A stretch of 63,347 nt of DNA, the filler included, from Reclinomonas americana ATCC 50394 (Eukaryota): the NCBI GenBank assembly GCA_048213135.1. It is 8 parts of 5 records of this genome, joined end to end, with 100 filler letters (N's around TTAATTAATTAA, not from the genome) between each part and the next. Parts side by side here need not be neighbours in the genome. Positions count along the whole stretch, not along the records: positions 1 to 31,689 come from PS015428.1; positions 31,790 to 38,722 come from PS015430.1; positions 38,823 to 41,287 come from PS015430.1; positions 41,388 to 54,047 come from PS015430.1; positions 54,148 to 58,232 come from PS015431.1; 3 more parts are not named here. The stretch is one strand, 5' to 3'. Positions 3,301 through 56,514 of this stretch are shown piece after piece (position 1 is the stretch's first letter; each line of letters opens with the position of its first letter). A program made the translations under genes and the position numbers. Under the pieces are notes generated by a model. It was not told the origin of the DNA, did not search any database, and saw only the letters and a list, made by a program, of their open reading frames with translations.

Positions 3301-6300
3301 CTCGTATGGCGACGGGAAGCTGACGTTTCCACGTGTTGCGAGCGAGAGCGAGGCGGTGAACAGGGCTGCGAACGTGAATCCGAAGGCGATAAGAATAATA
3401 GTTGCAGAATTCATGACGACAAATTTTAGTCGTCTCATTCTCAGTTCCACCCACTCATTCTCTGGCTGTATTCCCACACTACCTCTGCCATTCACTCACA
3501 TCATTCCGTCACTCACTCACATACTCACTCCCTCAGTACCCATCAGTATATATCCTTGCTCTCCAACCCCTCCCTTCTGTTCTACTCGTCTTCCCTTGTT
3601 CCCTCATTCACTCCCATTATCTCTCTCTCTCTCTCGCACTTGTTCACACTCGCAATGCACTATACACACATACTCTTGATCACTTACACCCACACTCACT
3701 CACTCACTCACCCACCCACCCACCCACTAAGCCACTCACTCTCTCATGCACTTTCTTCCACTTTCTCTCTCTCTCTTTCTCACTCACTCTCTCACTTTTT
3801 CCCTCGCTTACTCCCTCCCTCGCTTCCTCCCTCCCTCACTCCCTCACTCACTCTCTCTCTCACTCCTTCCCTCACTCACTCCCTCCCTCCGTCCCTCCCT
3901 CACACACATTCTCTCTCGTTCTCCCTCCTTCCCACAATCCCGTCCTCTCATTCGTTCCCGTCTTTCCTCTTTCTCTCCGCTCCTTTCTTTACTCCCTCAT
4001 TCACGGCACGCACTGTCGACATGTCTCGTGCATTCAACTACTAAATCACTCACCCCTGCATTGACCGTTCCCATCTCCCTCTCTCGCTCTCTCTCTCTCT
4101 CTCTCCCTCCATCTTTCCCTTCCTCTTCCTCCCTCTTTCCCCATCTTCCCGCTCCCCTCCCCTTTCCCCTCTCGCTGTGCGCGCAACTGCTGCCCACATC
4201 CGAGGAATTGCGATTGGAGGCCAAGTTGCCGTCGATTGTCACAGAATGCGCTTCCATCCACGCCGACCAGCCACCCTTCGAGTGAATGGACTGATACAGC
4301 GGCATCAGCGCGGTGGGGTCACCGCCGCCGTTCCAAAAGAGCCCACCGCCCGAGCCTTCGCCAAGAAAGCGCGCCGAATCACTATTGCCTCGACCCGCAG
4401 CCGTATTGCCTGAGATGCTGACGTGGTCAAGCGTCACGGCGCGCGACGCAAAGAGTGTTGGATCGGTGCAATTGATGGCGAGACCGCCACCGCGAGCCCC
4501 ACATACATTGTCGGCGAAGGAGACGAATGAAAACGACGCCTTTGCCGTGTCAGCCACAGACGCACCGCCACCATCGCCGCGCGCGGCGACGTTGCTGACG
4601 AATCGAGTATTCAAGCAAATCACAGCGACCGAGCCACCGGCAAATAGTCCGCCGCCCACAGCTGCCGCCGTGTTGTTGTACACCAGCGAGCCAGACATGG
4701 TCAATTGTGGATTGTTGTCCGTGTACACGCCGCCACCATAATCTGCTCGATTCCCCTCCACCGTCGCTGCACTCATCGCCACTTGCGCAGTTTCAGTAGC
4801 TGACACTCCACCACCACCACCACCACCACCACCGTCGACTCGATTGGCGATCAAACGAGATCCAAGCAGCGTGGTGCGCGAGCTGCCACTTGCGTACACC
4901 GCACCTCCACGCAGCTGTGCACGACCACCACTGATTGTGCTTCTTGTGTCAGACCATGCACCCAGTCCCTGCGTGGTCACGTGTCCACCGGACGTGGCCG
5001 CCACGTTGCTCACGAACTGACTCCCTGCCGACGTGGCATTGGCCGACTGCGAGACGTACATGCCGCCGCCGGCCAGCGTGGCATTGTTGGCCGACATGCT
5101 ACAGCCAGAGAGACTGATCTGCGACAGTCCGTCCACATACACACCGCCACCGTCTGCCGCGGCCTGGTTGTTGCTGATGGAGGTGCTGGTCAGAGTGTGC
5201 TTGCTATTCTGGTCGACAAACATGCCACTGCCAAAGGGTGCCAAGTTGCCGACGACAAATGAATCGGACCACGAGGACGAGGACTGCAAGTCGGCAAACA
5301 GTCCACCACCAAAGTGGAGCGCCTGGTTGTTCCGCACGGCAGAGCCACCCACCACAGCGAGCGTGGCGGTGGCGGTGAGGTACAGACCGCCGCCATTCTG
5401 CATCGCCTGATTGCCGTCCACAATGGACTGCGATTGCATCTGCAAGTGCACTTGCTCGGCACGCACTGCCACACCGCCGCCGTACAATGCCGAGTTGCCG
5501 GAAATGATGGTGTTCGAAATCGTGGCGGTGGTGGCCACCTCGTTGAGCACCACACCGCCGCCATATCCAGAGGGCGACGTGTTGGCTGTCACCGAGGAGT
5601 CCACGATGGAGCAACCCTGTCCACTCATGGCCACGCCGCCACCTCCAGTGTCCAGAGCGATATTCTGCGTGACCCGAGTTCCAGATAGGAGTGACTGAGC
5701 TCCCACGAGCACGCCGCCGCCAGTCACTAACTGCCCAGACACTGAATTCCCCGAAACCACGCAGCCAGTGGCGGAGCTGGACGCGTCAAGCAAGAGCGCT
5801 CCACCTCCATGCGAGCGACCGGCGATGACGAGAGGGACGGACAATTGAACAGTGTTTCCAATCAACGTCGACGACGTGACATTGGCACCGTTGACTGCAA
5901 GCACAGCCCCACCACCGCAAAAGGAACCTGAGGAAAAGAGCACATTTCCGGCACCTGCATCCTCCACGTGGTTATTAATGAACTGGGAGCCGCTGACAAC
6001 AACTGCCGAGTTAACGAGAAGCAACGCGCCGCCACCGTTGTGGTCGCTGCCCTGCCCGTTGAGCGTGCTGTAGAGACCACCGGCGCCGTCACGAACAGAG
6101 CGATTGTCGCTGAAGGTGCATTCAGTGACGCTGAATGTACCCTGACAAGAAAACAAGAAGACAATGAGCTGCGTCCAAACGCACCATCGCGAGAATCACA
6201 AGCATAACTGTTGACGATGAGGGTGCTACGAGCATCGCCGCTCCTCCACCGCTGAAACCGCCAAATGAAGCACCAACGTTGTTGTTTACACCGCCCGCAC

Positions 6301-9300
6301 CGTTGTGAGATGATGTGTTGTTGAAAAACTGCGAATGGCTGAGGTTCTGCAACAACAAAGTAATCGGCATACAGCAGAGGATTGTAACATGTGACGGATC
6401 GAGGTACACACCAACACGGATGCAGAGTTGGGCTCGGAGTGTACCAACAGGGCGCCTCCTCCGGAGAATGTTGCTGAGCTACTTCCTGACGACGGATTCC
6501 CACTGCCACCGTTGCCTGCGGGAGGTGTGAGAACGACTACCAAAGGTAGAAGGTACACACCACGCAGGAAATCACCATTATTGCCGGCAATGTTATTCAA
6601 AAAGGTGCAGTTGTCAATCTGCTTATCGCGCTCGTGAGATTAACAGTTCCTGCATATTGCGGGGTCGACCAATGTGGAACACACCTCCAGTGTACCGGGT
6701 AGAGCAGCAAGGACAGCACCACCACCACTTACGGTACCCGTGGCATCTCCCCGCACTCCAGCAGCATTACCTGAAGCCGTATTAGAATCAAAGCCACAAG
6801 ATCGCACCACCATCTTCACCACAGTGTAAGTATCAAATCAAAAACTGACATATTTTCAAATGGCGATAGCAGTTCGAGTTACCTGACTCCTAACGTTTCC
6901 GAGCAACACAAGTAATGATCCACCTCCATTCCGAGTTCCAGATGAGTTTATCGACCCCTCACAATTCTGGCTAGCATCATTCGCGACAAAACGACAGCCC
7001 TCAATTGCCTACGTTGACCGATTCGGGTCAGTATTCAGTGACAGTAAGCACATTGGAGCAGTGTGAACAAAACAAACCGTACTGAAACCAAACCCAAACT
7101 CCGCTGCCGCGGAGACAAGAATGGCTCCACCGCCGCTGAGGTAACCCGCAGCATTTGCTGAATCCGGGTTGATCAGATAAAAAGCATAACACTCACGGTC
7201 GAGGAACCACTGCACATACCACCGATCCCATTGCCACTTGCGCTGTTCAATGTGAATTCACAGCCGCGAATGGTCTGTGACAATCTCAGCCAAGCGGCGA
7301 TTTAAAAATAACCCTCGCAATGACGTTCACAATCACGTACGACTGTCCGTGAACACAACGTACCTGCGATGCTGTGCTGCCACGGTCGAAGATGAGGATG
7401 ACACCACCACCATTGATAAAACTATTGCTGTCCGCACCCAGATTGCCAGAACCTTGCATTAACAAGCGGCGAATATCAGCCAGGAATGACAGTCACTTCA
7501 ACGGTCGCTGCTACTGCGACTCACCACCATTTCCATTATTGCTTGCAGCGTTCGACGTAAACGTACAGAGTTCAGTAATCTGCGTTAACTGGGTTACGCA
7601 GTTCAGTGAGCAAGCAGTGAGAAGAACACATTAGCATGACGGCGACAAGACTTCCTATCTTGCGGTTAATACGAACCACAACTGTGCCAGGATTAGTGCT
7701 GCTAATCAACAAAACTCCACCACCATTAGTGTTGCTGCTGCTATTTGCACTCCCGAGTGAAGATCCTGCATTTCATAATCACACGATGTTAAGTCAATTA
7801 ATCGGATGTGCTACAAGAGCGACAGGGAGATGGCAAGCGCACACGGACTACTCACCTCCGCCGTTCCCATTGCCACTTGCGCTATTTGCTGTGAATCTGC
7901 AGCCGAACATGGTCTACATCACATGCATAGTCAAGGCCAACAGAGAGATACGAGCGGAATAGCGTAGGTGAAAGTGACAACCACCATCACACAACACAGA
8001 GCGAGACGTACTCAAGCTAGCAGACAAACGCAAATAAGCATAGAAACCGTACCCGTGATGTCGAACCGGGACTATCGGCTGAGTACAGGACGACACCTCC
8101 GCCATTGGTGCTGCTACTGCTGATCGCACTCCCGTACACTGAGCCTGCACGGCAAATAATACACCGATCATGTCACCCACAAAACAACCGACAGCTCGTG
8201 CGCTGATGAACATACCACCGCCATTTCCATTAAAGTTTGCGCCATTAGATGTGAATGTGCAGTCTTGGAAATCCGAGAATGCCTGCCAGAATAAACAAGA
8301 GGTCAATACATCTTGTCAACACAGGGCCAGAGTACAATCGAATGCTACGTACACGACTTGAGCTGCTAAAAATATCGGCCCGAACGTTGATCAACATCAC
8401 GCCACCACCATTGGTACTGCTTCTGCAATCAGCAGTCCCACCGATACCATGCGCCGCTGCACACGAGGACGAATCGGCAAAGTCAATCACAGTGCACTCT
8501 GTGTCGCTTGCACATGAACGAGCGACCAATTAACGAACCGCCACCGTTCCCGTTGCTGTTTGCAACATTCGATACAAATATGCAACTGACAGCTGCCAGA
8601 TTCGACTGCAACAGCGTGCAGTCAGCAGTCTCGTGCAGAANNNNNNNNNNNNNNNNNNNNNNNNNNNNNNNNNNNNNNNNNNNNNNNNNNNNNNNNNNNN
8701 NNNNNNNNNNNNNNNNNNNNNNNNNNNNNNNNNNNNNNNNNNNNNNNNNNNNNNNNNNNNNNNNNNNNNNNNNNNNNNNNNNNNNNNNNNNNNNNNNNNN
8801 NNNNNNNNNNNNNNNNNNNNNNNNNNNNNNNNNNNNNNNNNNNNNNNNNNNNNNNNNNNNNNNNNNNNNNNNNNNNNNNNNNNNNNNNNNNNNNNNNNNN
8901 NNNNNNNNNNNNNNNNNNNNNNNNNNNNNNNNNNNNNNNNNNNNNNNNNNNNNNNNNNNNNNNNNNNNNNNNNNNNNNNNNNNNNNNNNNNNNNNNNNNN
9001 NNNNNNNNNNNNNNNNNNNNNNNNNNNNNNNNNNNNNNNNNNNNNNNNNNNNNNNNNNNNNNNNNNNNNNNNNNNNNNNNNNNNNNNNNNNNNNNNNNNN
9101 NNNNNNNNNNNNNNNNNNNNNNNNNNNNNNNNNNNNNNNNNNNNNNNNNNNNNNNNNNNNNNNNNNNNNNNNNNNNNNNNNNNNNNNNNNNNNNNNNNNN
9201 NNNNNNNNNNNNNNNNNNNNNNNNNNNNNNNNNNNNNNNNNNNNNNNNNNNNNNNNNNNNNNNNNNNNNNNNNNNNNNNNNNNNNNNNNACCTGGAAAAA

Positions 9301-12300
9301 GAAAATTCCAAAGCGGACATTGATGAGCGCGAAACCACCGCCATTCGTGTTGCTCTCGCTTACTGCTCAAAAAGAAGACACAAGTTAGTTGAATCTGCGT
9401 CCCATTGTATGGCAACAAAACCGGCGTTGGCTGTAGCAGTTCTGCGATACTCACCAGCACCGTTCCCATTGTTGTTAGCGGTATTCAATGCAATGGTACA
9501 ATTGCTAATAGTCTGCGACGACGATTACAAGCGCCGTCAGTCGACAAGAATGCTCACAGAGAAGATTCATGGTTCGAGAAGTGACAGACACCAAACGAGG
9601 GTCTGAGGAACACACCTGGAGGAGACCACTGCCTTGATAGATCAGCACGACACCCCCACCGTTCGTGTTACAAGAGATCGCTCCAGGCGAGACTGAAAAC
9701 CAACAGATCACCGCACGGTTGATGAGCCGCAAACACACACATACGCGCACACACCAAAGCACTCCACTTCTCACCGCCACCGTTTCCATTGTCATTTGCA
9801 GTGTTTGATGTGAATGTGCAGTTGCTGATGGTCTGTGAACGCAACACGCACATCGTCACAACAAGCTGTCGCTATCAACCACCGACGCAATCGACCCATA
9901 CCTGGACTGTACTTCCGTTACTGGAAGCATTTATCATCACGACGCCGCCACCGTTGGCAAAGTCGAGCACTGTCAATATAAATTCGCGAAAAGAAAACTC
10001 AACAACTATTCGGCAATAATCATGACTACGTGCCACTCACGGCCACTGACTCCGTTGCCATTTGCAGTGTTAAATGCAAACGTGCATCTGTTGAGAGTCT
10101 GCGCAAAACGCAAGAGGATTCAGTGAGAAATAATAGTCGCCTGCAGTCTCCAAACGCAAGGGAGCACACCTGATCGGTGGAACCGTAGATAAGCATTACA
10201 CCACCGCCGTTTGTGTTGCTGGTGCGCTCTACGCGCAGGAAAAACACACCCATCAAGTTGACCACCTTGTGCAGATCTGCAACTTATCACATTCATACAG
10301 CACAGCGGCTCACCTCCAATTCCGTTGCTGTTGGCGGTGTTCGAGGTGAATGTACAGTTGACGACGACCTGCGACGAAACTTGAGAAAGTTTAATTGTCG
10401 CAGCTTATTTGGCGGAACACACACCTGCGTGACTGATCCATAGAGAAGCATTGCACCACCACCATTGCTAAAGCCAGCTGTGTGTACAAACAAGCACATC
10501 AATCAAGGCAAACAAACGCCCAATCATTTACAAACCGTCAAACACAAACCACTTCCGTTGGCATTTGCAATGTTCGAGGTAAATGTACAGCTACTCATGG
10601 TCTGCAATATTCACAAAAATCTCAGTTATGCGTACACAGACGGTGACCCATTTGACATCGGCTGTCGCTAATAGTTGACACACGACAATACACTATGAGA
10701 AACATACCTGACTCACGGAACCGTACAAGAGCATGACACCACCACCGTTGGCGATATTAGTGTGAACTGCTCCGCATCAAGTGAGTTAGTGAGTTGACAA
10801 CGACCGACAACACCAAGGTGCACATCGAGCACTCTGCTACCAACCGTTGGAAACACCATTGCCGCTTGCTATGTTCGACGAGAATAAGCAGTTGCTGACG
10901 GCCTGCGGAATAATGAGCGATTCAATCCAGAGGTAAATCTTTGTCGGAGAGAAGCGTACAACTTAAAAAACATACCTGCACCACAGCAACACGGTTACCG
11001 AAGACTAGCATCACGCCACCGCCATTTGTCTTTCCATCCTCTCCGACAGCGTCTCCAAGGGAGGACACTGAGCGCAGTTGAGTCGCATCGATTAGGGACA
11101 ACACCACAACGATCGCTCACTCATGTGACGACAGAAAGAGCATGCCAGCATGCGCGTCTTCACTTACCGACGCTACGCCCATTGCTGTCGGCAGTGTTAC
11201 CAACGAACGTACAGTTGCTAGTGGTCTGCGACAACTGCAATCACTGCGGTGAGGAGGTAACTGCTGCAATAACGAGCACACTCTCTGCGCGACGATTTTC
11301 TGGGAACGCACCTTTTCACCACCTTGGTTAAAATTGATTAACATGACGCCGCCACCATTTGCAGAGCTGACTCTCACTGCCAACAACAGCCATAGCAGAT
11401 CTCAAACGCCGTACTCCACCGCAGCAAGCCCCCCCAGGCGAAATGGCACACACCTCCATTTCCATTGCTTTCAGCACTGTTCAACGTGAACGCGCAGCTG
11501 GTGATGGTCTTCACAATCAAGTGCGCTATATGTGTCAATGACATGCTCGTAGCGAAAGATGGAGGCAATGCCTTTCTGTACAGACAAAACACACACCTGC
11601 TCGACATTAAAACCACCATCGATAGTGATCAGCATGACACCACCGCCACTCGACAGGGAATACACACCTGTACACAAACACATTGACAAAATGCCTCACC
11701 AGCAAAGTTCCACACCCACGTCAACTACGCTGTGCTTCTCACCACCGCTATTTCCGTTGCTGTTGGCAGAGTTTGAGGAAAATGTGCAATTGCTGATGGT
11801 CTGCGACAGCTGTGATGGCATCACGTTATTCAAGCGATGAGCGCAATCACAACGATGATCAAAACACACCTTGCTGGCGCTCGCGAACAAAAGAACGCCA
11901 CCGCCAGCACCAATAGCTCTCGTGCTCCCTGATCCTCCTCCGTTTGCGTTGTGATCAGCGTGGTTGAATAAAAACGTCGATCCAGTGATCTGCTAGAGCA
12001 AAAGCCTCTAGTATTAACCCCATCCGGAAACACGATCGCAACAGCTCGTAGAGATCTAGAACTCACGGTCTGCGTTGCCGATTTCGACACGTCGTTGTAA
12101 GACGACCAAATAACGCCTCCGCCGACGCGTATACCGCCACCAACATTTGCATTTTCCGACGCTGTGTTATTGAGAAACCAGCTGTCCAAGATCTGTCATC
12201 CGTGGGTAGCAGGTGAGCGGGCAGAAATTTATCAGCTCGGCACCATCTCGATGTTCACAAAACCTCAAGCGTACTTGCTCCAGACGTCCAAACAACCCCA

Positions 12301-15044
12301 CCGCCGCAGTCACCCTCAAAGCCTTGTTGATTACTTCCCCCTTTGCAGTTGCTGGTGGCCCCGTTCAGGGTGGCCGTCACATTCTACACGATACCTCACT
12401 GTATAAGCACATGGTCTGCTGTCTCTCGCCCCGCAGCTTCCATCAAACCTTCAGTGATACAATGGGTGACAATGCAGCTGACGCAAAAAGCGCCCAAATG
12501 GCTCCGCCTCCAACTTGTCGGCCACCACTTGCATACGCATAAACGCATAGCGGGTCATCTGCTGACGGACATTGCGCGCTAATGCCACTGTTGGTCACCA
12601 AGTTCCCAGCCAACGAGGTGCCTTGAAAATCAACCAACAGCGCGTTGTTGACAAAAAGGCCACCACCGCCCACATGCGTGAACCCGTTCGACCAGAAAAG
12701 GCCACCATTTCCGCATTGAAACACCGTGTTGTTTGTCCACACGCCACCGACATCTGTTACCGTCGCCGACGTTGGATCCGTCACATACATCGCACCACCG
12801 CCCGTTTTCATCCAAGTGAGGTTCGTGGCCGTGTTGTTGACAAACCGAGTATCCACAGTGTTGACGACGACTCCACCGGAACCCGACACGAACACGGCAC
12901 CCCCACCCGCGCTGCCCTGCGACACCGATAAATCACCCGATCCGACAACGGAGTTGTTGGAAAACTCGCTGTCTTGGAAGACAACAGTGGCGCCAGGCGC
13001 GAGGTTGACAAGCGAAAAGGCGGCTCCGGAGGCATCGTCACCGAACTTGGTGCAACCATGCCACGTTGAGCCTGTGACTTGAACAGCAGAGAATGGGCCA
13101 GACACGAGCACGGCAGAGGACAGTGCAGAACTTGCAGCAGCACTGTGGTCCACGAACTGCGAGTTGATGATGAACAGCGATGCGGTGGTGGTAGAGCTCG
13201 AGGGAAGCGCAGTGGCGTCAAGCTGCAGGGCGCCCGCCGTGGAATCGGTAAAAAGACATCCAGAGATCACGACTTGTGGAGTCGGGGTTGAAGAGAGTGC
13301 GCTCCACGAGACTGCTGGCTGACCGCCGGTGACGGAGAGGCCCGTCATTTCGAAGCGTTGTGAATCTTGCACGATGACGGACGCCATGGCCGACATGTGC
13401 AAGACGGGCGGTGGCGATGTCGACGACGATGCCTGCAAGGTGACGTTGCGACCTGTTTGTGTGCGAGAAGCGGAGTGAGTTGAAGAAGGGAAAAGACGCG
13501 CAACTGCATCAAAGAGTGAGAGAGATATATAGAGATAGAGATAGAGCTCGAGAGAAAATAATGCGCGATCGCGAGGATAATAAGGGGAAAGTGGGGACAA
13601 GAGCAGGGGAGGTCAATATAGAAGGAAAACAAGAGCGGGAATGAGTACACGAAGAGGATGGCTTTCCTCAGATCTCCCTCTTCATCTCCCTCACTTCCAC
13701 TTGCCACGGCCGTTGGACAAGGGAAAGATTATCCACCTCCCGCGCTTATCTCCCTCTTTCCTCCTTTCCCCCCACTCTCACTTGCCACGGGAAGGACAAG
13801 AGAAAGACTATCCACCATGGCCACCCGCACTCATCCCCCCTCTTTCCTCCTTTCACGCTTCCACTTGCCACGAGAGGGACAGATCTAGAGAAAGACTATC
13901 CACCACCCGCACTCATCCCCCATCTTTCCTCCTTTCCCGCTTCCACTTGCCACGGTCGTTGAGTGAGAGTGACGAGAGGGACAAGGGAGAGACTATCCAT
14001 CTCCCGCACGCATCTCCCACTTTCCCCCTTTCCCTCACTTCCACTTGTCACGGCCGCCGAGTGAAGAGTGACGGGAGGGACAAGGGAAAGACTATCCACC
14101 TCCCGCGCTTGTCTCCCTCGTTCCCCATTTTCTTCACTTCCACTTGCCACTGGACAAGGGAAAGACTATCCACCTCCCGCACTCATTTCCCTCTTTCCCC
14201 TTCCCCTCGCTTCCACTTGCCACGGCCGCCAAGCGAGAGTGCCGAGAGGGAATAGAGAAGACTACCTACCCCCCGCACTCATCTCCCCCCTTTAAATTTT
14301 CCCCATTTCCTCACTCTCACTTGCCACGGCCGCCAAGCGAGAGTGCCGAGAGAGAATAGAGAAGACTGTCTACCCCCGCACTCATTTCCCTCTTTCCCCC
14401 TTTCCCTCACTTCCACTTGCCACGGCCGCCGAGTGAAGAGTGACGGGAGAGACAAGGGAAAGACTATCCACCTCCCGCACTCATCTCCCCTCTTTCTCCT
14501 TCTCACGCTCTCTCTCGCTCTCTCGCTCGCTCGCACATACGCACACGAACGCGTACACTCACCTCCAAGTGAGAGCGGCGCGGTCAAGACGAATGTGTCG
14601 CTGGCAAAAAGCACTTGCAGTGCCCATTCGAGCGATGCGGCCGAGTACCCACGTTGGGCACACGATGCCATGATCTGGTTCAGCGCACAGGGTGTAACAG
14701 AATCACCACACGATGTAGAGAAGGAGCCGGCGGCGGCGACATTAACTGGCGGACATGATTATTGATGTGTCAATATCAAGACTGTTTTCATCACGCAACA
14801 CGCGCACACGCACCTGCACACTGCGACGATGGAGGCGCAGCTGTTGGGAAGAATGCGCGCTCATCCAAACGCAGAACTAGCGCACGTGTGTGTGTGAGTG
14901 AGAGAGAGTGGGATGAGAGGCGGACACAACTCCGGACAGGTCACGCCACCCACGCTCACCGCTGGCTCTCGCAGTGGATGACACAGCGACGAGGGAGAGT
15001 AGCAGCAGCAACACCACTGCTACTCTCCACACGCGAGCCCACAT
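348..15044 (-). CDS. Giant multi-exon secreted/membrane protein: signal peptide, long right-handed beta-helix (Pmp-like GGG/GGA + FxxNxA repeats), C-terminal multi-pass TM region and acidic cytoplasmic tail
   Basis: ATG at 15044 gives MWARVWRVAVVLLLLLSLVAVSS (signal peptide). GT-AG exons join in frame through 14563-14745 and 12443-13454, a micro-exon array at 7100-11990 and a ~1.95 kb exon at 4188-6141 (FSDNRSVRDGAGG, NNTAAAVGGGLFA...). Hydrophobic helices lie at ~1600-2030. The model is interrupted by N gaps. The 3' end (348 vs ~930-1184) is uncertain. Confidence 0.75.
13690..14495. repeat. Intronic minisatellite, ~9 copies of an 80-105 bp unit (CACTTGCCACGG...GACAAGGGAAAGACTATCCACCTCCCGCACTCAT)
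   Basis: Core recurs at ~13698, 13779, 13862, 13944, 14042, 14141, 14214, 14318 and 14414, inside the intron at 13455-14562. Confidence 0.85.
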
Positions 15045-16124: not shown

Positions 16125-16517
16125 CTTCTCCACCGCCAGCATCTTACGCGATCAGAGGTGCACTGTGGCTACTCCCACCCTGCACTCTGCCACAACGGAC
16201 GACTCGGCCTGCACTCAGGCGTCGATCACCTTCGACGCCTCCAGTGATCTCTCTGGCGGCGAGTACTTTTTGTGCATTGACCGGGACGGCGTCGGCAGCG
16301 CTTCCGGCTTTGAGTTTGTCGTGCAGGTCGCAGTCTGTTGCGTCTCCTCTCCCTGCATCCCTTCCCCGCATCCCTTCTCCGCATCGTAGTCAGTCTCTTT
16401 CCTCTCTCTCTGCATCTCTCTCTCGCTCTCTCTCTCTCTCTCTTCTCTTCTCTCTCCCCCTCTCCCTGCATCGCAGTCATCAGTCTCTCTCTCTCTCNNN
16501 NNNNNNNNNNNNNNNNN

Positions 16518-22707: not shown

Positions 22708-23339
22708 GGGGAATAAGGGAAAGGGAGGGGGAGACGGGGGGATAGGGGAGAAGGGGGAGGTTTCTGGATTCTGTTTTTTTCATTGTTTCATTGATGTGTC
22801 TGCCGCGAAGTTGAATGTATTGATGCGGTGGCTGGTGTTGAGTGGTTGGTGAAGGGGAGCTCCAGAGAGAGAGAGGGAGAGAGAGGAAAAAATGCACAGA
22901 TCGAGTGTTGAGAGAGGAGAGGGCCACTAATCGCAAGCATGCANNNNNNNNNNNNNNNNNNNNNNNNNNNNNNNNNNNNNNNNNNNNNNNNNNNNNNNNN
23001 NNNNNNNNNNNNNNNNNNNNNNNNNNNNNNNNNNNNNNNNNNNNNNNNNNNNNNNNNNNNNNNNNNNNNNNNNNNNNNNNNNNNNNNNNNNNNNNNNNNN
23101 NNNNNNNNNNNNNNNNNNNNNNNNNNNNNNNNNNNNNNNNNNNNNNNNNNNNNNNNNNNNNNNNNNNNNNNNNNNNNNNNNNNNNNNNNNNNNNNNNNNN
23201 NNNNNNNNNNNNNNNNNNNNNNNNNNNNNNNNNNNNNNNNNNNNNNNNNNNNNNNNNNNNNNNNNNNNNNNNTTTCACACAGTGTGCAGGTTTGTCTCAC
23301 ACACTGTGTGAAACAAAAAATACAAAAAGAAAAAGAAGG

Positions 23340-23412
23340 TGCCTTCCGGCGGGATCGAACCGCCGACCGATGGCTTATTAGACCATTACTCTACCGACTG
23401 AGCTAGGAAGGC
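23340..23412 (-). tRNA. trnI-AAU: tRNA-Ile, anticodon AAU (IAU)
   Basis: Reverse complement GCCTTCC TA GCTC AGTCGGTA GAGT A ATGGT CTAATAA GCCAT CGGTC GGCGG TTCGATC CCGCC GGAAGGC A folds into a full cloverleaf; T-tracts (pol III terminator) lie just downstream. Confidence 0.93.
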
Positions 23413-23595: not shown

Positions 23596-24488
23596 TTACT
23601 CCTTTGCCGCGGCCGCCGCCGGGTTCAGTCCGCTCAGCATCTGCTTGAGCTCGCCTGCAACGCCACACGCACACACACATACACAGTGCGTGAGTGGAGA
23701 GTCCGACACACAAAAAGCAAGCGCAACACACGCACCTGTCTTGTGCAGCGACATCATAATATCGCAGCCGCCAATGAACTCGCCCTTCAGGTACACTTGC
23801 GGGATCGTCGGCCAGTCGCTGCACACCACACATGTCACAACGCATGCGTGCGACGGGTGGCACAGCAACCGCAGCCTGTACGCAACGAATACTTCTTGAC
23901 GCCCTCACGGATCTCACTGTTCTGCAACACATCGTAGGTGACGTACTCGATCTCTGCACGCGCACTCAACGTGGTAAGCGAGAGGAGGACGAGGAGGAGG
24001 GAAGAGGAGGAGCAGCAACTGTACGAGTCGAGGATCTGCACGACGGCGCGACTAAAGCCACACATGGGCTTCTCCGGCGATCCCTTCATAAACAGCACCA
24101 GTGGGTCTGCCTTGACCGCCTGCATCAACAGAAGGAAGGAGGAGTGAGTCGTCGCACGCACAGGAGAGACACAGTGAGAGAGTGATCGCACCTCATCAAT
24201 CTGCTTCTGAATGTCGTCTTCTGACGCCGACGATGATGGCGCCTTGCGGCCAAAGTCAGGATGTGAGCCACTGGAGTCGACAGTGGAGAATGCGCGCAGT
24301 GGCAGCAGACGCGCGAATGACACTGACAAGAGGGCGAGTGAGTCACTGCAGTGACGCATCTCTTTCTCTCTTTCTCAGATGCGCACCTGTTGGTGTGCGG
24401 CTGATGCAGGAGGCAATGCGTTGCTGTGCATATGTGAGCGAGTGAAGCAAGAGAGAGTGAGACGACGACGATCGCTCACCAACAACAT
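23596..24488 (-). CDS. GRX5: Mitochondrial monothiol glutaredoxin (Grx5/GLRX5)
   Basis: Spliced product has an Arg-rich presequence, then [60 protein letters not shown]. Confidence 0.95.
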
Positions 24489-31689: not shown

Positions 31690-31789
31690 NNNNNNNNNNN
31701 NNNNNNNNNNNNNNNNNNNNNNNNNNNNNNNNNTTAATTAATTAANNNNNNNNNNNNNNNNNNNNNNNNNNNNNNNNNNNNNNNNNNNN
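31690..31789. other. Artificial scaffold linker 44N-TTAATTAATTAA-44N (also at ~38723, 41288, 54048, 58233, 60431, 62009)
   Basis: Identical 100-nt cassette with stop codons in all six frames, 7 occurrences. Confidence 0.95.
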
Positions 31790-31831
31790 GAGAGAGAGAG
31801 AGAGAGAGAGAGAGAGGGACACGCGCGTCAC

Positions 31832-33640: not shown

Positions 33641-33677
<37 letters not shown>

Positions 33678-33716
33678 GTTGACATGTTGTTCACTCTCTC
33701 CTTGATGACACGACAG

Positions 33717-42700: not shown

Positions 42701-45296
42701 CTCACTTCCAGCATCGTTACCGACGCGTCGTACACTGACTCGATTTTGTGGTCATTCTCATCGTAGGGTGTCGCCACTTCGTCCATTTATTGCATTGCCG
42801 CAACCCATTGCCATGTCAGGTCTGTGATGCAGTGCACATGTTTCTCGCCGCCGCCCCTGCCACCTTTGCACTCAAATCGTATCACCATCAGCACCTGGTG
42901 TCTCGAGCATGGAACCGTCTTTCGTCCGCCCTGGTGTCCCCACCACGGTGACGCTGAGCGGCAACGGATTCCACCCCGACGACAAATTCTACGTGTACTC
43001 GCGGACGCAGTCCATCGGACCTCGCAGCGACCTGCACCAGCGTGCCGTGCAGGGACTGGTGTCGCTCGCCTCTCTTCGGTGAGTATTGCATTGTTCATGG
43101 CGACGCGAGAGGCGCCAGTGTTCTCATGACGCGACACCGCACCCACACGCAGATCGACTCAAATTCTGTGCGGCGGACAAGTGGTCACCGATCCCACCGA
43201 GTTGCAGCAGACCTTTGTGTCTTCTTCCCAGCAGCAGGTGCAGATTGTGTTGCCGGCCGACACAACTAGCTGGGAGCTGTGCGTGCGACACGCCGGTGCA
43301 CAACAGTTGCCGTCGGGCACCCTGACCGGTTTGAGTGGCGTCGGATTCCAGATTGTCAGTTGAGTTTTTGCCGCGACTTGCAAGCATTTTCTGCATTGTG
43401 CGCGACATTCTCTTTTTACTGACCTTGTCACCACCAACAGCCCCAGTGGTGAATCAGGTCGAGCCGCTGCAAATCAGCGTCGGTAGCTCGATTTCGTTGA
43501 CTGTGCGTGGACCTGCTTTGCGACTGGTCGACACCCCGATGCTGGTGCCGGTGACGAACACATCGACCACCTGCGGTGATGTGCCGCCGTCGGCTGTGCT
43601 CAGTGCCATTACGCCCGTTTCGGGTTCCATGACGCTGACGCAGGTGCCGAATACCTCCGACAGGTACTGCTCACCACCACCACCACCACTACTACCACTG
43701 TCTCTCGTGTAAGATTGCCACCCGCCACTCACCCAAGTGTGACTCCCTCATCAGCAATCTGGTGGAGCTGAATCTGCGCCTCAATGTGCCGACTGCCGGC
43801 CAGTACATTGCCTGTGTGCTGGTGCAGCCCGACACTGGTGGTCGCCGCTCTCTGTACGCCGCCTCCGCCTACATGGCGCAGATGAGACAGAGCTTTGTGA
43901 TCACAGCTACGCCGGCTGTCGTTGTCCCACCCCCCACTGACACCGGTTCCACTTCCGGCTCGTCGTCCACCACACTGAGCGGTGAGCGAGTGAATGAGTG
44001 TGCCTGCGCTCGCTGCGGTGAATAGTGCGCTGAGTTTTGGAGTGCTAACTTGGATTATACGCACAGACAACAAGCGTGCCCTCATTATCGGACTGAGCGT
44101 TGGTCTCGGATCATTGGCGCTCATTCTCTTGGCGTTGTTGGTGTGGTTCCTGGTGGCCCGCCGCCGTCGCCAAGAGCGCGATCGCAAGGGCAGATCCACT
44201 ACTACGACCATTGCTCCGCCTTCGGCGCGTGCAACTCCTCGCCGCGACGAAGAGTCGTGGACCGGTGTGCGTCCGATCGATACGGAAATGGGCGACGCGT
44301 CGCGCACCACCCTGCAGCTCATGTCGCCCGAGTCGGCCACCAACGCTGCCATGGCGGGTTTGCCGACGCAGACGCCGTCTGGCATTCCGCTGCTGGCTCA
44401 AATGTCGGACGCCGAGACGCCGCGTATGGGTGGCACGGGCCCTTACAGCTCGTCCTTCTCCGTGCCTGGTGCAATTGGTGTGTTTGTGTTGGTGTGCTTG
44501 TGTGTTCGTGTCTTCTCTGTATTTACAGTCCGCCGCGCAGCTACGAGCCCCGACGCCACATCGCACGCGCATCTGCCATCGCTGCAGGTGGTACCCACTC
44601 CGTCGGGCGTTCCTCTCCTGTCGCAGCAGCAGTCCTCGTCCAGCGACGTCGACACCCCGGTTGGCGGCGATATGCCGCCCACCACCGCTGGTACGTTGTC
44701 GCGTCAACCAACAAAAGAGAGGCGTCCATCACTCATTTGTTGCCTATTGTGTGTTTGCGTGCGATGAACAGGCTCGTCGGTGGCTGTCACGCTGTCGGAC
44801 GTCGACTTCCTGTCACCGACTGGCATGGGGCTTCTCTCCGACGCCGCTCTCCTTCCGTCGCCGGCCGCTGCACCGATCGTGGTCGGACTCGGTGGCCCGT
44901 CGGCCGAAGAGGCTGCTGACGCCCAGGCGCAGGCTCAGGAGAGTCCTGAACCAGACTCGGAGCACTCACGCGGCGAGTCCGAGACGAGCTCGCCCACGTC
45001 GGGCCACACGGCTGCCGACCAGGGTGCTCGCTGGTTGGAGCTGCCGTGGGGATCTCGCTGGTGTGTGCAACAGGAGGATGGCATGGTCACCGGAGCCATA
45101 CAAGCACTGCAGGAGCTGCCGGAGACCGACTACTTTGGCAGCATCGCGCTGCCGTTGGTGGCTCTTCGCTGGATGCATGTGGACACTCGTGGACGGCTTG
45201 CCGAGCTCGACACATTGATGGACGGTGAGTCAATCGTCTCTCACTCTCTGCGCGTTGCTGGCCTCTCTGACCGATGTTCCCTGTGCAGAGCTTTGA
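33717..45296 (+). CDS. Very large type-I membrane protein: at least 4 FN3-like domains each carrying an NHL beta-propeller, 2 cadherin-like domains, EGF-like motif, several Cys-containing Ig-like domains, TM helix, low-complexity tail (5' end missing)
   Basis: NHL repeats (FSSPYGIAVDSATGTLYVAE, GIAADKSGNLYVAE). FN3 ends (TGLQPATTYWYRA..DFTT). Cadherin-like NVAPTGISIS..GTLSATDPD..IRATDIGGL. CTGGFFGPEC. TM LIIGLSVGLGSLALILLALLVWFLVARRRR at ~44080-44170. Ends MDEL*. Spans two linker gaps. Confidence 0.8.
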
Positions 45297-45410: not shown

Positions 45411-46622
45411 ATGTGTTCACACGAGCTGGTGACGCACGTCGAGGAGTTTGTGCACAAGCAGATGGCTGGCAACGATGCCAGCCACGACTGGGCACACGTG
45501 CATCGTGTTCGTCGCCTGGCACTGACGATTGCGGTGAGCGTGACATACACACTCTCTTCTCTCTCTTTCTTTCTCTTTCTCTCTCTCTCACACACGCACG
45601 CGCATGTGTGTGCATCTCCGACACACAGGAAAACGAGTCTCGGGAGACTGGTGTGCCGGTGGACATGGAACTTGTTGAACTCGGAGCGCTGTTGCATGAT
45701 GTCGGAGATCGCAAGTATGCCTCTGCAGAGTTGCGGGTGTGCGCACGCGCATATGTGTGTGCATGCTTGTCTCTGAGAGAAGCTGACAGAATGGCGGTAT
45801 GTGGTGCAGAGATGAGGATTGCGTGACGCAGGTGAATCGCTTCCTTCGCCAGCATGACTACTCCGAGGCCAAGCTTGAGAAGTTGGCGTTCATCCTGGAG
45901 AATGTGTCGTTCTCGCAGTTGCGTTGCACGTCTCTCTCTCTCTCTCCCTCTTATGTGTGTGAGAGAACAGTCACCTCACATGTCATCATGCAGCGAGGTT
46001 GCCAGTGGCGGCTCACTGACTGTCACGCCAGAGTTGGCGGCGGTGCAGGATGCAGATCGTCTGGATGCTGTTGCGTCGACACTCATTGTTCTGACACGAG
46101 GCGCCTTGACTTACGCAGCCTCCCCGCCTGCGCAGATTGGAGCCGTCGGCATTGCGCGAGTCATGGCGTACTCGGGGCGCAAGGGACGACCGCTGTACGA
46201 GGCCGAGTTCAACTCGAATCCCGACGGCTTCCTCGTCGAGTGCGAGAAGGCACTGGTACGACGCTATGCATCGCCCTCGCCCACCTTCTCGCTTCTCCAC
46301 TCTTCTCCTCCTTTGCCTGCGCACACATCTCACCGACACGCGCAGAACGACCCGATCGACGTGGCGAAGTACAAGGACGCGCAACGGCGCGACTCCAGCA
46401 TCAAGCACTTTTACGAGAAGCTGTTGAAGCTGCGCAGCATGATGAAGACGGCGGCGGGCCGTCGACTGGCCGACGAGCGTCACCGTTTCATGGAGGCGAG
46501 TGTCCAATCTTTCTTTGTTTACGACGGTTTCTGCGCGCGTGTGGTGTGTATCCTCACGCGCCCTCCTCACTGTGCAGCTCTACCTGGACCAATTCTTTGC
46601 GGAGTGGCGAGGCGAGCGCTAA
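45411..46622 (+). CDS. HD-domain metal-dependent phosphohydrolase, YedJ/YpgQ-like
   Basis: DASHDWAHVHRV, ALLHDVGDRKY, VQDADRLDAIGAVGIAR, HFYEKLLKL..MKTAAGRRLADERHRFMELYLDQFFAEW; 6 introns including one GC-AG. Confidence 0.92.
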
Positions 46623-49307: not shown

Positions 49308-49342
49308 GTGAACTTTCGCTTGCGTTGTTTTTCACTCTTGTC

Positions 49343-51850
49343 TCACGTCACGGCGGCGGTGCGTGTGCCGCTGGCGGGGCGCTTGCGATCACGTGAACGC
49401 TCCTCCAACCGACTCACTTCGTTGCGCAGCATCCTGACGGCATCGTGGACGAAGTCCAAGTCGCTGTCGTCGCCCCGCACGACCGGCAGCAGCGGCAGAT
49501 GTGGTGCGGCTGGCGTGGCCTCCTCTGCCGGTGTGCCTGTGCCATTAGCTTCCGCGTCTGTGCTCTCGTCGAGGCTCTCCAACTCGGCCGGATTCGTGTG
49601 TGCCAGCTGCATGGCCGACTGCAGCTGTGGCTGCGTGGCGCGAGCGAGACGTGTGCGATCTTGCGGAGGAATGATGCCGGACTGCACGAGCGCCACCAGC
49701 GAGTCGGCCGGCNNNNNNNNNNNNNNNNNNNNNNNNNNNNNNNNNNNNNNNNNNNNNNNNNNNNNNNNNNNNNNTTGGTGGCAGTCCCTCAACATGGTCG
49801 CTGCCGACTTCATCGTCGTCGTCGCCGTCGCCGTCGCCGTCGTCGACTTGGAATCGGTATCGGCCGTCTTCGGATTCGAACACCTCGTTCCAGCTGTCGA
49901 TGCTGCGCTTGCGAACTGGCAGTCCCTGTGCGTGCGGGTGATAGTGGACCGGGTTTGGATGCTGCAGAGAGCCGCTGATGATTGCTGGTCCCGCTGCGAA
50001 TCGCCGTCGTTCCCGCTCGCTGACGGCGAAGGCCGCCGCCGACGACGACGACGGCGACGATGACGACGACAACGGCGAAGTTACTGAGGTCGGTGATGTT
50101 GACGTTGGGATTGTGTGCGCCAGTCGCTCCTTTTGCGACGCATGCCTCTGCAGCACCGATACCAGGGCCCGCGTGTACTGCGCGGCATGAGCGTTGAGCG
50201 AGTGCATAGTGCTGCTTAGTTCTCCAGCAGCTGCCGTGCTGTCGCGGGTCGGTGGAGCAGTTGCCGGCGTGTGCCTCGCTCTGTGCACCTGGTTGAATTC
50301 CTCGACCGACTCGCGCTCCAGCGTCGCCGCATGGTGGTCGTGCGATGCCAGTTGGTGTAATCGCAGTAGGGCCGCAGAGTTGTTGCCGGCGGTGGTGCCG
50401 CCAGTGCCGCCGCCACTGCTGTTGGCCGCCAGTGATCGGTTGGCCATGTGGACTAGCAGGGCGGCTTGAGGTATCAGTGGCTGCGGAAGCTGTGATTGTG
50501 GTGGTGGTGGTGGTGGTGGCTGTGGTGGCGGTGGCGCTGCGGTGGCTTGTGACGATAGGCTGTGGACAGGACCACCTCCGTGTGAGGGTGTGACAACAAC
50601 GCAGGATTGGAGCGCGGACGCTACGTACCTGCTGGATCGCGAGAGGCGAGATGGCTGCGGAGAAGGGGATCGCGAGCGTGTATTTGGCGAGCGCGATCGG
50701 TCACGCAGACGACTGAAGGCCTCATTCGCCTGTTCGGGAGTGGCGCCGAGGTTGGCCAGCGGCAGCGGACGACTGGTGCCGTGAATGCCTACCATTGCGC
50801 GGAGGCAAGTGAGTGAGTCGGCGGGCGGAGCTCACAGTCAATGCACCATGGATGTGTGTACCTCCGTCGGCCACAAAGATCGAGGCTTGTCGCTCTCTCC
50901 AGCAGTCGGCGTACGCCACGCGCATCAGTTTGTCAATGAACAGTGCCACTCTGTGGGTGACGTGTGAGCGAGCTCATGATCACCGACGCCAACCACATTG
51001 TACGCAACTCAAAGGCCGTCGGTCTCTCGACCCATACTGCAGAATGAAATCATCGTGAGTTCTTTCTCGGATTATCATCGCTAGCAACGCAAACACACTC
51101 ACCATCGGCGAGCTCCAGCATGCTGATGTTGAAGGTCTTTTCGTTCACCACTCGGCCCGAGCGCAGCGTGTCGAACGTGTAGCTCTCGTCGGCCAGCATC
51201 TTGCTCTGCGACTGCAGCAGGCATGGCAGCAGACAAGCGTGAATCCGCATGGCGAACTTGATGTACTGCTGGCGTGTGAGCGTGTACGACGACACGTTCT
51301 TGCCCACACACTTCCACAGCTGCGCCCGTGCGAGTCAGAACCGCCGCACTGTGTCAATGTGTTTTTTACCGTGTAAATACCTTGCTCAACGCCTCGACCA
51401 CGCGCGGATGCGTGGCGAGGGAGCTGCGCTGATGATGAAACACAGAAGCACCTCCGCTCAGCTGGTCCCCCGGTGCGGCCGGAGGCAGCGTCCATCTACA
51501 TCACTCATCCGTAAGAGAAATGAATGATCTTTTAAATCAAGCCCACACGTACGATGTCCGCGGCATCTCGACCAGCACGATCTTGCCCTCGACCACCAGC
51601 TCGGTGATCTTGGTCATGATCACCTCCCACCGCTGCCGCCGTGTCACACACGGAGTGAGGTTGGCGTCGAGCACGCGATCCCACCAATCGCCAACGAATT
51701 CATCGCCATCCTGTCGGGAACGTGAGTGGAGAGTGGGTGATGTCGACAACGCACGCCAGTCTGCCTCACCTGCACGGGTCGAATGTGGCCGCCGATCAAC
51801 AGGTACCACACAGGGTGCATACATCCCGACATACGATTGGCGTCTGTCTG
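49343..51850 (-). CDS. Hypothetical protein with a degenerate EF-hand-like helical domain and a long low-complexity C-terminus
   Basis: HPRVVEALSKLWKCVGKN..LTRQQYIKFAMRIHACL..TFDT..VNEKTFNISMLELAD; long ORFs at 49545-50795 and 49343-49712; start codon uncertain. Confidence 0.5.
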
Positions 51851-52019
51851 TGAAAACGCACACAAAATGCGGCAAGTAACGCGCGAGCATTATTGACCTG
51901 ACCGACCTAACCCAGCACGCACACACGCGCTCCCCTCGCTCGGCACACCGAGAGAAGCGGAGGAGGACAGGAGAAAAGAGAGCGCGCTCGTGTGTGTGGG
52001 CCCCTCTCGCACAAGAGAG

Positions 52020-54037: not shown

Positions 54038-54155
54038 TACGTACATTNNNNNNNNNNNNNNNNNNNNNNNNNNNNNNNNNNNNNNNNNNNNTTAATTAAT
54101 TAANNNNNNNNNNNNNNNNNNNNNNNNNNNNNNNNNNNNNNNNNNNNCCACCACG

Positions 54156-55870
54156 TCAGTGATGCCAGGTGTGGAGATGTGAGGGCGGGGGAATCGGGCG
54201 ACGCAACAGCTCCTCGACATGGAATCCCTCGACAAGTTTGCTCTGCGTGTAGATTGGCATGGTCCGCTTGAAGGCGGCGGTGGCGGCGAGATCGGCGTTG
54301 GTCGGGTTGTACACCACATTGCCCGTGTGCGCTACGCATCACACACACATAAAACGAGTGAGCCACACCCCACAGACAGACGCCGGTTTCGCTGTGCACA
54401 GCAGACGCAACGATCAATCGACACCACTTGCGGCAACTCATTAAGTCGCTTCGAGGGCGACCGCCGCGGCAGCGCTTGTTTGTAGTTGGCCAGCTGTACA
54501 GGCGTAGGGACAATGAGCATGACGATCATTGGCATGTCTCTCTCGTTGCATGCACTCACCTCGTTCTTCAACTCTGCCAGCTCCCGTTCCGTCTGCGCCA
54601 GTCGACCACCCATCATGACCATTGCGTCTGGCTCTACAATCCCGCGTGTCAGCACAACGACAATAACACGAAACGGAATGGTGACACAAAGTTAGGCGCA
54701 ACTGACAACCATGATGCCGCCGGGACCCGCCTCTGCTGCCGTGTGCACCACCATGGTCGGTGGCGACGTGGCCACCAAGATGCCGGACTGGTTCAGTGTG
54801 GGTGGCGGGCTGGCCATTGCACCGGTCACCTTCTCCGGACTGGACAGCAGTCGCAGGATGTGCTCCTGTCGCTTCTTCACCGTCTCCAGTGCACCCTCTG
54901 TCTTTTCTCGCAACGTCCTCTCGCGCTCCAGCCGAGTCTCCAGCGCATGCAGACGATTCAGAGTGCCCTCCGACACCTCCGATCCCATCGCTCGCGAACT
55001 AGCCGACGGACCCAAGTCCGAGTACTGATCCAACAGCAGCCTGTCGTGCATCGAGGCCGACGATGAACGCAGGCGCCGTGAACCACGCGATCCAAAGGAG
55101 AGGCGCGAGGCGGCCGACATGCCACCCGACGACATTGGTCTTGGGTGATCGGTGGGTGTTGGTGCCGGCGCTCCTGCACCCTCCCCACTCCGTTCTCCTC
55201 CCATCGGCAACGACAATCGCAGCGCGTTCATCCGTTCGCGCGCCATTTGCTGCGCGACGAGTGAGAAGGGATGCACAGCGGAAGGCGATTCACACGAGAG
55301 CACCACTCGCTCACCTCCTGTGCCATCGCCTCCTGCTGCTGTGCGTGACTCGACAAGAGACCAGCGGCTGTCTGCGGTCGACTGGCGCCCGACAGCGACG
55401 ACATTCGACTGAATCCCGACAAGACCGAGGCGGGCGTCTGCGGTCGGAACGACGAAGCCCGTGACGATGCACCCACCGAAATCAGAGAAGCGCCATCATC
55501 GTGACCACGGTGGTCGTCTTGCTGCTGCTGCTGCTGCTCCTGTTGTGTGTGATCCACACCGCCATCATCACCACCAGTGGCGCTCGCCGAGTCCTGGTGC
55601 GTTGGACTCCCGGCCATCCTATCATACACGTCGCGCGGAAGTCTGCACGGGAAACCCTCAGCATTTTCTCGCGGAGTGGACGTGGTACCACACGCACGCA
55701 ACGTGGCCATGGTCGACTGCAGAATGTGCTGGTGCAGCGGCGTCGAGTTGGACGCGCTGGCATCCATCGACGATTTGACAGCCGGCAGCGGTCTCCACAC
55801 ATGCGTCTTGTTGGGCGACGGCACGCCACCGCCCTTGCGCAGCGGCTGCGGTCGGTTCTAAAAAACACCC
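54156..55870 (-). CDS. Hypothetical coiled-coil/low-complexity protein, 5' end in or near the gap
   Basis: Exons with coiled coils (LNRLHALETRLERERTLREKTEGALE; LAQTERELAELKNE) and an RPQTA motif. Confidence 0.5.
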
Positions 55871-56514
55871 CNNNNNNNNNNNNNNNNNNNNNNNNNNNNN
55901 NNNNNNNNNNNNNNNNNNNNNNNNNNNNNNNNNNNNNNNNNNNNNNNNNNNNNNNNNNNNNNNNNNNNNNNNNNNNNNNNNNNNNNNNNNNNNNNNNNNN
56001 NNNNNNNNNNNNNNNNNNNNNNNNNNNNNNNNNNNNNNNNNNNNNNNNNNNNNNNNNNNNNNNNNNNNNNNNNNNNNNNNNNNNNNNNNNNNNNNNNNNN
56101 NNNNNNNNNNNNNNNNNNNNNNNNNNNNNNNNNNNNNNNNNNNNNNNNNNNNNNNNNNNNNNNNNNNNNNNNNNNNNNNNNNNNNNNNNNNNNNNNNNNN
56201 NNNNNNNNNNNNNNNNNNNNNNNNNNNNNNNNNNNNNNNNNNNNNNNNNNNNNNNNNNNNNNNNNNNNNNNNNNNNNNNNNNNNNNNNNNNNNNNNNNNN
56301 NNNNNNNNNNNNNNNNNNNNNNNNNNNNNNNNNNNNNNNNNNNNNNNNNNNNNNNNNNNNNNNNNNNNNNNNNNNNNNNNNNNNNNNNNNNNNNNNNNNN
56401 NNNNNNNNNNNNNNNNNNNNNNNNNNNNNNNNNNNNNNNNNNNNTGTGGGTGCAAAGTGAGTGCGTGTGTGTGTGGCAATGTCACACAAACAACAAAAGA
56501 CACACACACTCAAC

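Follow-up and report, generated by a model that had tools for sequence, protein, structure and literature searches.

Two unusual ways in which U1 small nuclear RNA (snRNA) can pair through its 5' end with a 5' splice site (donor) are established for humans, one in which the register of pairing is shifted and one in which a nucleotide at intron position +3 (or +2) is bulged (Tan et al. 2016, PMC4856993). The shifted register applies to donors of the /GUUAAGU type, where the slash marks the exon-intron border (Roca and Krainer 2009, as cited in PMC4856993 and PMC9311317), and the bulged nucleotide opposite U1 is credited to Roca et al. 2012 in the legend to Figure 1C of PMC4856993. Human donors also show a dependence between the G that ends the exon (position -1) and positions inside the intron which, in the account given in PMC8283771, is not fully explained by U1 pairing. 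Here we examine a stretch of 63,347 nucleotides (nt), referred to as the window, which joins eight parts of five records of the Reclinomonas americana ATCC 50394 genome (GenBank assembly GCA_048213135.1) and for which an earlier reading of the sequence (the original prediction) had proposed an abundant second class of donors, GTTG[CA]G(T), used only after an exon base other than G. Our analysis of gene models, homologues and paralogues indicates that these GTTG[CA]G sites are real GT-AG donors which form a major class in the window, and that they may be read one base out of step with the ordinary donor signal.

The GTTG[CA]G donors resemble the human shifted sites in that GU is followed by a further U and then by the +3 to +6 consensus displaced by one base, with the G of GU taking the place of the exon-final G while the cut stays at GU. 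Human shifted-register donors are rare and amount to a handful of sites, whereas the class described here makes up 13% of the introns in the window. The displaced core also differs, being GCGU here rather than AAGU, and the helix with the standard U1 5' end is broken and left nearly without stability. There is a similar likeness to the human bulge sites, as GU[U]GCGU is GUGCGU plus one extra U that can bulge at +2 or +3, but the human bulge register would still profit from a G at -1, which is found at none of our 25 sites, and the extra base here is always U and is followed only by GCGU or, rarely, GAGU. Finally, where the -1 G is missing, the signal on the intron side is stronger, as in the human compensation between -1 G and +5 G (PMC8283771), although here a one-base insertion displaces the register and does not produce a better match in the normal one.

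The window is eukaryotic nuclear DNA (G+C 0.46-0.60) with dense genes and very short and very frequent introns, and it is the only source of evidence used here, with the donors known from its genomic sequence and from gene models. These models came from a Viterbi gene finder which we wrote for the window, trained on the window itself and used in two forms. In the signal-free form, an intron is required only to start with GT and end with AG, at a flat penalty, and the donor is not scored; this gave a noisy set of 106 introns with many false long ones, in which GTTGCG was the commonest donor hexamer (six introns), and since the output is too noisy for counting it serves only to show GTTGCG emerging without training. 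The self-trained form uses an acceptor matrix, a model of intron length and composition, and a first-order donor model at positions +3 to +9 only, with the exon bases excluded from the donor score. Models with scores below 10 were discarded and, where a model overlapped a gene on the opposite strand, so was the one with the lower score; this left 170 introns, and the clean set used below consists of 144 introns of 45-120 nt with a CAG or TAG acceptor.

All 22 sites named in the original prediction carry the motif given for them, in 19 cases GTTGCG (15 GTTGCGT, three GTTGCGC and one GTTGCGG), in two GTTGAGT and in one GTTGCTG. Of these, 18 were also predicted as donors by the self-trained gene finder, which found three further sites of this type at 54411 (-), 55702 (-) and 62116 (+), for a total of 25 sites; the four which it missed were 45730 (+), 26382 (-), 32311 (-) and 56514 (-), two of which are otherwise favoured, one by homology and another by paralogy. 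Each of the 24 introns with a known acceptor has the form GT..AG and keeps the reading frame when removed. The rough estimate that more than 10% of introns belong to this class is true for the window, where GTTG[CA]G introns account for 19 of the 144 in the clean set (13%). GTTGCGT occurs 23 times on the two strands together, compared to 13.4 +/- 3.4 times in dinucleotide shuffles, none of 100 of which reached 23. This raw excess is modest and it is the location of the copies that stands out, as 18 of them coincide with donors, either predicted or claimed, of the coding strand. By comparison, GTGCGT after A, C or T is used as a donor in six of 66 copies, though such shares are confounded by GT-rich repeats and we do not take them as a measure of donor strength.

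The last exon base at the 22 claimed sites is A in nine, T in eight, C in five and never G, as had been stated. The proposed tie between this class and the -1 base also holds when it is compared with other donors, with G preceding none of the 19 GTTG[CA]G introns in the clean set and 47 of the 66 GTNNGT introns (Fisher 8e-9). Amongst all 170 introns, G is found at -1 in one of 21 GTTG[CA]G introns (the doubtful agg/GTTGAGGGT), 46 of 71 GTRNGY introns and 13 of 20 GTYNGY introns. We regard the absence of the usual -1 G preference in the GTTG[CA]G class as firm. Active avoidance of G at this position is weakly supported, because G is likewise uncommon before copies of GTTG[CA]G that are not donors (10 of 57).

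Two genes allowed the position of the cut to be examined with homologues. The first encodes a Grx5 protein on the minus strand and has claimed introns at 23954-24019 (aca/GTTGCTGCT, a GTTGCTG donor that departs from the class at +6) and 23819-23886 (ttc/GTTGCGTAC, interrupting KKYS/DWPT). We scored 66 in-frame and stop-free GT-AG combinations lying within 30 nt of these introns against a profile made from 102 homologues, and the claimed pair ranked first of the 66 isoforms, with margins over the next donor of 16.6 bits at 23886 and only 2.8 bits at 24019. The second is an HD-domain gene on the plus strand with claimed introns at 45730-45809 (aga/GTTGCGGGT), 45918-45993 (gca/GTTGCGTTG) and 46070-46135 (gct/GTTGCGTCG, at DADRLDA/IGAVGIAR), for which the profile was built from 55 full-length homologues (195-260 amino acids) among the 150 matches listed. 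The donor at 45730, which the self-trained gene finder had not chosen, was first of 12 in-frame alternatives (264.7 versus 261.8 bits, a margin of 2.9); that at 45918, which both forms of the gene finder had chosen, was first of 27 with a margin of 5.5 bits; and that at 46070 was first of seven with a margin of 12.8 bits. The spliced HD protein aligns with the family profile from end to end, with the invariant DADRLDAiGAiGIAR motif spanning the 46070 joint. The GTTGCG cut was thus the best at all five junctions compared with homologue profiles. The closest homologues of these proteins, which belong to many different lineages, share no more than 50% (Grx5) and 67% (HD) identity across matched stretches that are short, and the named clusters of HD homologues are from plants, green algae and oomycetes.

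Two other ways of cutting the same introns were considered. A GC-AG reading (GTT/GCGT), with the donor three bases downstream, was worse at all five junctions by 2.1, 5.2, 7.2, 6.5 and 7.6 bits. A cut made one base later at both ends (G/TT...AGN/) is not told apart from the GT-AG cut by homology (0, -0.7 and +2.0 bits) and was set aside on the general GT-AG rule. We also note that for the last intron of the HD gene (46502-46577 (+)) the donor agt/GTCCAATCT at 46502 scores 5.2 bits more with the profile than the GTTTAC at 46517 selected by the gene finder.

Conserved motifs had also been cited for two further junctions. In the Rpp21/Rpr2 gene, with an intron at 26310-26382 (-) (att/GTTGCGTGC), the downstream exon matches Pfam Rpr2 positions 40-66 (E 5e-8), but 26382 is only one of four in-frame donors, and a Pfam search with the first Rpp21 exon gave no match. 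In the gene encoding an ankyrin and ADP-ribosylglycohydrolase (ARH)-like protein, the intron at 30315-30372 (-) (acc/GTTGCGTCC, LMRAT/PMAV) has a donor chosen by the gene finder, but the Pfam search with the 36-amino acid exon was empty; we presume that this gene belongs to the ARH family from the LMRAT/PMAV motif, and the support for 30372 therefore comes from the gene finder together with that motif. More generally, Pfam gave few matches to the 150 longest open reading frames of the window, because the exons are short.

A comparison of paralogous introns was provided by two genes encoding NHL-repeat proteins, a large gene at 33623-40267 (+) with three tandem modules and a second at 31790-32875 (-) with one more, which have 24 introns in total at seven common positions. 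At position P2, GTTGCG donors are found in three modules, after T, T and C: 34319-34405 (+) (gat/GTTGCGCAC, chosen by the gene finder), 36348-36425 (+) (gat/GTTGCGTGG) and 38197-38263 (+) (gac/GTTGCGTCT), the last two chosen by both the signal-free and self-trained forms. At P5 the donors are cag/GTGGAG (35172), cag/GTGCGT (37100), cga/GTTGCGT (gene finder; intron 39397-39474 (+), cga/GTTGCGTGC) and act/GTTGCGT in the second gene (intron 32215-32311 (-), act/GTTGCGTGG), the latter being found in the signal-free model and favoured by paralogy (FAFPT/AVTSDKAGNLYV). P7 has GTTGCGT at 35486-35562 (+) (caa/GTTGCGTGT) and 37431-37494 (+) (tgc/GTTGCGTCT) versus tag/GTTTCG and cgg/GTTTGA, and P8 has GTTGCGT at 35624-35691 (+) (cat/GTTGCGTCG) and 37556-37623 (+) (tgt/GTTGCGTTT) versus atg/GTGAGT and a doubtful, gap-truncated cac/GTGACG (33627); these four GTTGCGT donors were placed by the gene finder as well as being indicated by paralogy.

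In these two genes all 13 introns that follow G have donors other than GTTGCG, and eight of the 11 that follow A, C or T have GTTGCG. Paralogous introns change class together with the -1 base at P5, P7 and P8, and the class has changed at least three times among the NHL paralogues, each time with the -1 base. Since such a change requires both an exon substitution and a one-base insertion or deletion in the intron, compensation under selection is indicated. Apart from some 10 nt the intron bodies have nothing in common, not even in paralogues, and therefore the duplications must be old and the donor either kept or remade; we list this in support of the suggestion that the donor motif has probably been kept under selection while the intron bodies diverged.

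These results also bear on whether the class could be an artefact, either of mis-modelled genes in which other donors are really used or of errors in homopolymer runs by which GTG becomes GTTG. We consider this very unlikely. It is true that the donors are known from genomic sequence alone, that the gene finder was self-trained, and that this is a draft assembly with 25 runs of N in the window. Against this, the GTTGCG cut is the best at five out of five homology-tested junctions, the motif is enriched over shuffles, and sequencing error could not produce the link with the -1 base. Seven of the N runs are identical filler linkers (44 N, TTAATTAATTAA, 44 N) at 31690-31789, 38723-38822, 41288-41387, 54048-54147, 58233-58332, 60431-60530 and 62009-62108, which act as stops in all six frames; the order and orientation of the sequence across these joints are uncertain and genes are cut there.

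In most other respects the GTTG[CA]G introns look like those around them. Their median length is 68 nt compared to 70 nt, their phase is ordinary, and 14 of the 21 have a YTNAY-like branch motif located 10-41 nt from the 3' end. The acceptors are CAG in 12, TAG in seven and GAG in two, and TAG is used by seven of 21 GTTG[CA]G introns versus five of 71 GTRNGY introns, an excess that may partly reflect paralogy (35486 and 37431). Judged by these features, they are GT-AG introns of ordinary length that share the branch site and acceptor style of their neighbours and probably belong to the major spliceosome. U12-type introns have an RTATCCTT donor and a TCCTTAAC-like branch site, and we rejected this assignment as the donor here is not RTATCCTT and the branch sites are ordinary CTCAC or CTGAC motifs at a variable distance, as in neighbouring introns. 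The likeness to U12-type introns is one of logic only, in that both have a rigid donor internal to the intron, lack an exon-side consensus and make up a minority of introns.

The single fixed 5' end and the larger number of TAG acceptors (7/21 versus 5/71) might also be expected if the heptamer were an inherited and frozen 5' end left by an ancient mobile element that generated introns (an introner), with an insertion preference setting the -1 base. An all-against-all blastn comparison of the 21 introns found only the first 8-13 nt in common and no terminal repeats, and we rejected a mobile intron family on these grounds. Furthermore, the class switches with the -1 base between paralogous introns that derive from one ancestral intron, and therefore the motif is gained and lost in place. 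We disfavour the introner explanation and regard it as highly improbable.

Three further observations on donor usage in the window can be added here. A cluster of beta-helix-like repeat genes at 9290-11821, 7514-8640 and 4044-6813 (all (-)), with NCTF..SN..NGNGGG / NGGGVMLI units and a weak Pfam NosD match, includes a middle gene with 17 introns at regular half-repeat borders and of alternating phase, in which G precedes 15 of the 17 donors and GTTGCG is not used. A few predicted donors lack G at +5, namely GTCGCT (8526 (-), 31471 (-) and 43061 (+)) and GTCACT (28591 (+) and 59063 (-)), and these could be genuine but weak donors, or errors of the model. GTAAGT is nearly unused as a donor, with one predicted (11167 (-)) and nine copies on both strands, despite a G+C content of about 0.55.

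We consider the best single account of the GTTG[CA]G class, to which we give a little less than an even chance, to be that displaced recognition, shifted or bulged by one base, compensates for the missing -1 G. The whole of the 5' splice site signal would then lie inside the intron, with GUUGCGU being the local optimum G/GUGCGU read one base out of step or, equivalently, GUGCGU with an extra U after GU, and the G at intron position +1 would supply the G that normally ends the exon. This class would be used where the coding sequence ends in a base other than G and would compensate for the lost -1 G. The early reader of the 5' splice site (the U1 small nuclear ribonucleoprotein, then U6) would bind the heptamer displaced by one nucleotide, either in a shifted register or with U+2 or U+3 bulged, and the cut would then fall at the single GU. 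The RNA or protein that recognizes the heptamer, and the register in which it does so, are inferred, whereas the donors themselves, their abundance, their link with the -1 base and the switching of class between paralogous introns are shown by the results above.

The composition of the donors agrees in part with the claim that the two classes share the same 7-mer register. The 21 GTTG[CA]G introns all have T at +3 and G at +6, their G at +4 (21/21) corresponds to the +3 G of 71 ordinary donors (61/71), and their T at +7 (17/21) to the ordinary +6 T (59/71). This agreement ends at +5, where 19 of the 21 have C compared to the ordinary +4, which is T in 32, C in 21, A in 17 and G in one. When aligned with G/GUGCGU, G+1 replaces the -1 G, U+3 replaces U+2, and G+4, G+6 and U+7 replace positions +3, +5 and +6, so that in the shifted register +3, +4, +6 and +7 fit the ordinary consensus at +2 to +6 and +5 departs from it. 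GTTGCGT minus one T is GTGCGT, which is a good donor in the normal register and is used at 17 of the 170 predicted donors.

A number of points weigh against recognition in a displaced register. The conserved +5 C (19/21 versus 21/71 at the ordinary +4) means that there is a difference in how the two heptamers are read. When donors were folded in all registers with the standard U1 5' end, taken from Tan et al. (PMC4856993), the GUUG[CA]G donors had a mean duplex energy of only -1.6 kcal/mol (n=25), compared to -7.6 kcal/mol for GUNNGU donors after G (n=50) and -3.9 kcal/mol for those after A, C or T (n=26), though this U1 sequence may not be the organism's own. No register gives GUUGCGU a stable helix with this U1 and the displaced register is not more stable than the normal one. 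With neutral flanks, A/GUGCGU (-2.5) is no worse than A/GUUGCGU (-1.4), and therefore ordinary U1 pairing gives no reason for selection of the extra U. In addition, the self-trained donor model may inflate the count of GTTG[CA]G introns, and nine of the 25 sites sit in the two paralogous NHL genes and are not independent. Shifted pairing to ordinary U1, as at human /GUUAAGU sites, is insufficient by itself to explain the class. As the ordinary U1 helix fails, the U1 of this organism differs, a second U1 exists, or recognition is carried by U6, U5 or proteins.

The main rival to displaced recognition is one to which we assign a real but minor probability. It proposes a variant snRNA, either a paralogue of U1 or a U1 whose 5' end has diverged, which is complementary to GUUGCGU and pairs with it in near-perfect Watson-Crick fashion and in its own normal register, while ordinary U1 reads the degenerate G/GUNNGU. 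This would account for the rigidity of the heptamer, which is near-invariant from +3 to +7, unlike ordinary donors, though this is partly built in because the class is defined by the motif, and there are possible degenerate members (GTTGCT, four; GTTGTG, one). It would also account for the conserved +5 C, which calls for a G in the reader, as a standard U1 without G there forms almost no helix, and for the missing exon-side consensus, a feature shared with introns that have a separate snRNA as their reader. Humans have variant U1 snRNAs (PMC3561869), which we count in favour of this explanation. The branch sites and acceptors are like those of ordinary introns apart from the additional TAG, and therefore at most the reader of the 5' end differs, and the ease with which paralogous introns switch class is a further point against it. 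In its broader form, in which a single U2-type spliceosome would contain two systems for reading 5' splice sites, ordinary U1 for G/GUNNGU and a second snRNA (a U1 paralogue or one with a changed 5' end) for the rigid GUUGCGU class, we consider the proposal doubtful; a second snRNA complementary to GUUGCGU would nevertheless explain both the conserved +5 C and the failure of standard U1 pairing.

A search of the window with Rfam, at the gathering level and with E up to 1, found no snRNA, and returned one tRNA and weak microRNA-like matches. The tRNA is a tRNA-Ile (AAT) at 23338-23412 (-), on the strand that encodes Grx5 and some 190 nt downstream of the stop codon of that gene. At 19118-19270 (-), four plant-type microRNA precursor models gave weak and overlapping matches (E 0.04-0.6, far below gathering scores), which suggests a long hairpin or a low-complexity inverted repeat.

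The failure of U1 duplex energy to track donor use, with -1.6 kcal/mol for the most donor-specific heptamer, could alternatively mean that the decisive reader is a later one or is not U1, such as U6 or U5 with Prp8, or a protein that binds the 5' splice site. Pairing with U1 would then be almost irrelevant, and the extra U would provide spacing where the contact between U5 and the exon is weak because -1 is not G. The human link between the last G of the exon and positions in the intron noted at the outset (PMC8283771) is counted in favour of this explanation. However, GUUGCG gives no pairing with U6 at +4 to +6 in the normal register, as reasoned from the textbook ACAGAGA interaction rather than computed, and we think a later or non-U1 reader unlikely.

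The remaining donors of the class are scattered through the window. On the plus strand, the intron at 16337-16389 (tct/GTTGCGTCT) is a claimed site also chosen by the gene finder but lies in a low-complexity gene and has weak support, and that at 43359-43440 (tca/GTTGAGTTT), with a GTTGAGT donor, was found by both the signal-free and self-trained forms. Both forms also gave a new intron at 62116-62187 (gct/GTTGCGTAC) in a formin gene, in which we have low confidence as it begins 7 nt past a contig linker; a search with the FH2 exon among longer proteins found nothing. On the minus strand, the intron at 4049-4187 (gca/GTTGCGCGC) was again found by both forms but is one of the weaker sites, as both its GAG acceptor and its length of 139 nt are atypical. 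Those at 50951-51008 (tga/GTTGCGTAC) and 54634-54702 (tca/GTTGCGCCT) were placed by the gene finder, as were the new introns at 54332-54411 (atc/GTTGCGTCT) and 55643-55702 (cac/GTTGCGTGC). At the claimed donor at 56508-56514 (-) (gac/GTTGAGTGT) the motif is present and the acceptor would fall in the N gap at 55872-56444. Two further copies of GTTGCGT after T may be unrecognised donors, one at 54201-54207 (-) (gct/), immediately ahead of the point at which a gene model ends beside a linker gap, and the other at 14793-14799 (-) (cgt/), in a stretch without an accepted gene model.

The papers listed by a full-text literature search for GTTGCGT or GUUGCG donors were, by title and abstract, all unrelated, though supplements and other genome papers may bear on this. 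As far as these searches go, a displaced heptamer serving as a main donor class that is tied to the exon-final base is undescribed. Recognition in a displaced register, or something that mimics it, would here be a main class which is kept by selection and gained or lost with the last exon base, having been known previously only as a rare human oddity. The class shows how the end of the exon, through coding constraint, shapes the signal of the adjoining intron, and would offer a natural system for testing whether the site of the cut is fixed by the early U1 helix or by later contacts with U6 and U5. It should also be noted that gene finders which use a single donor matrix will misplace about one in seven introns in this lineage; our own model missed four of the 22 claimed sites.

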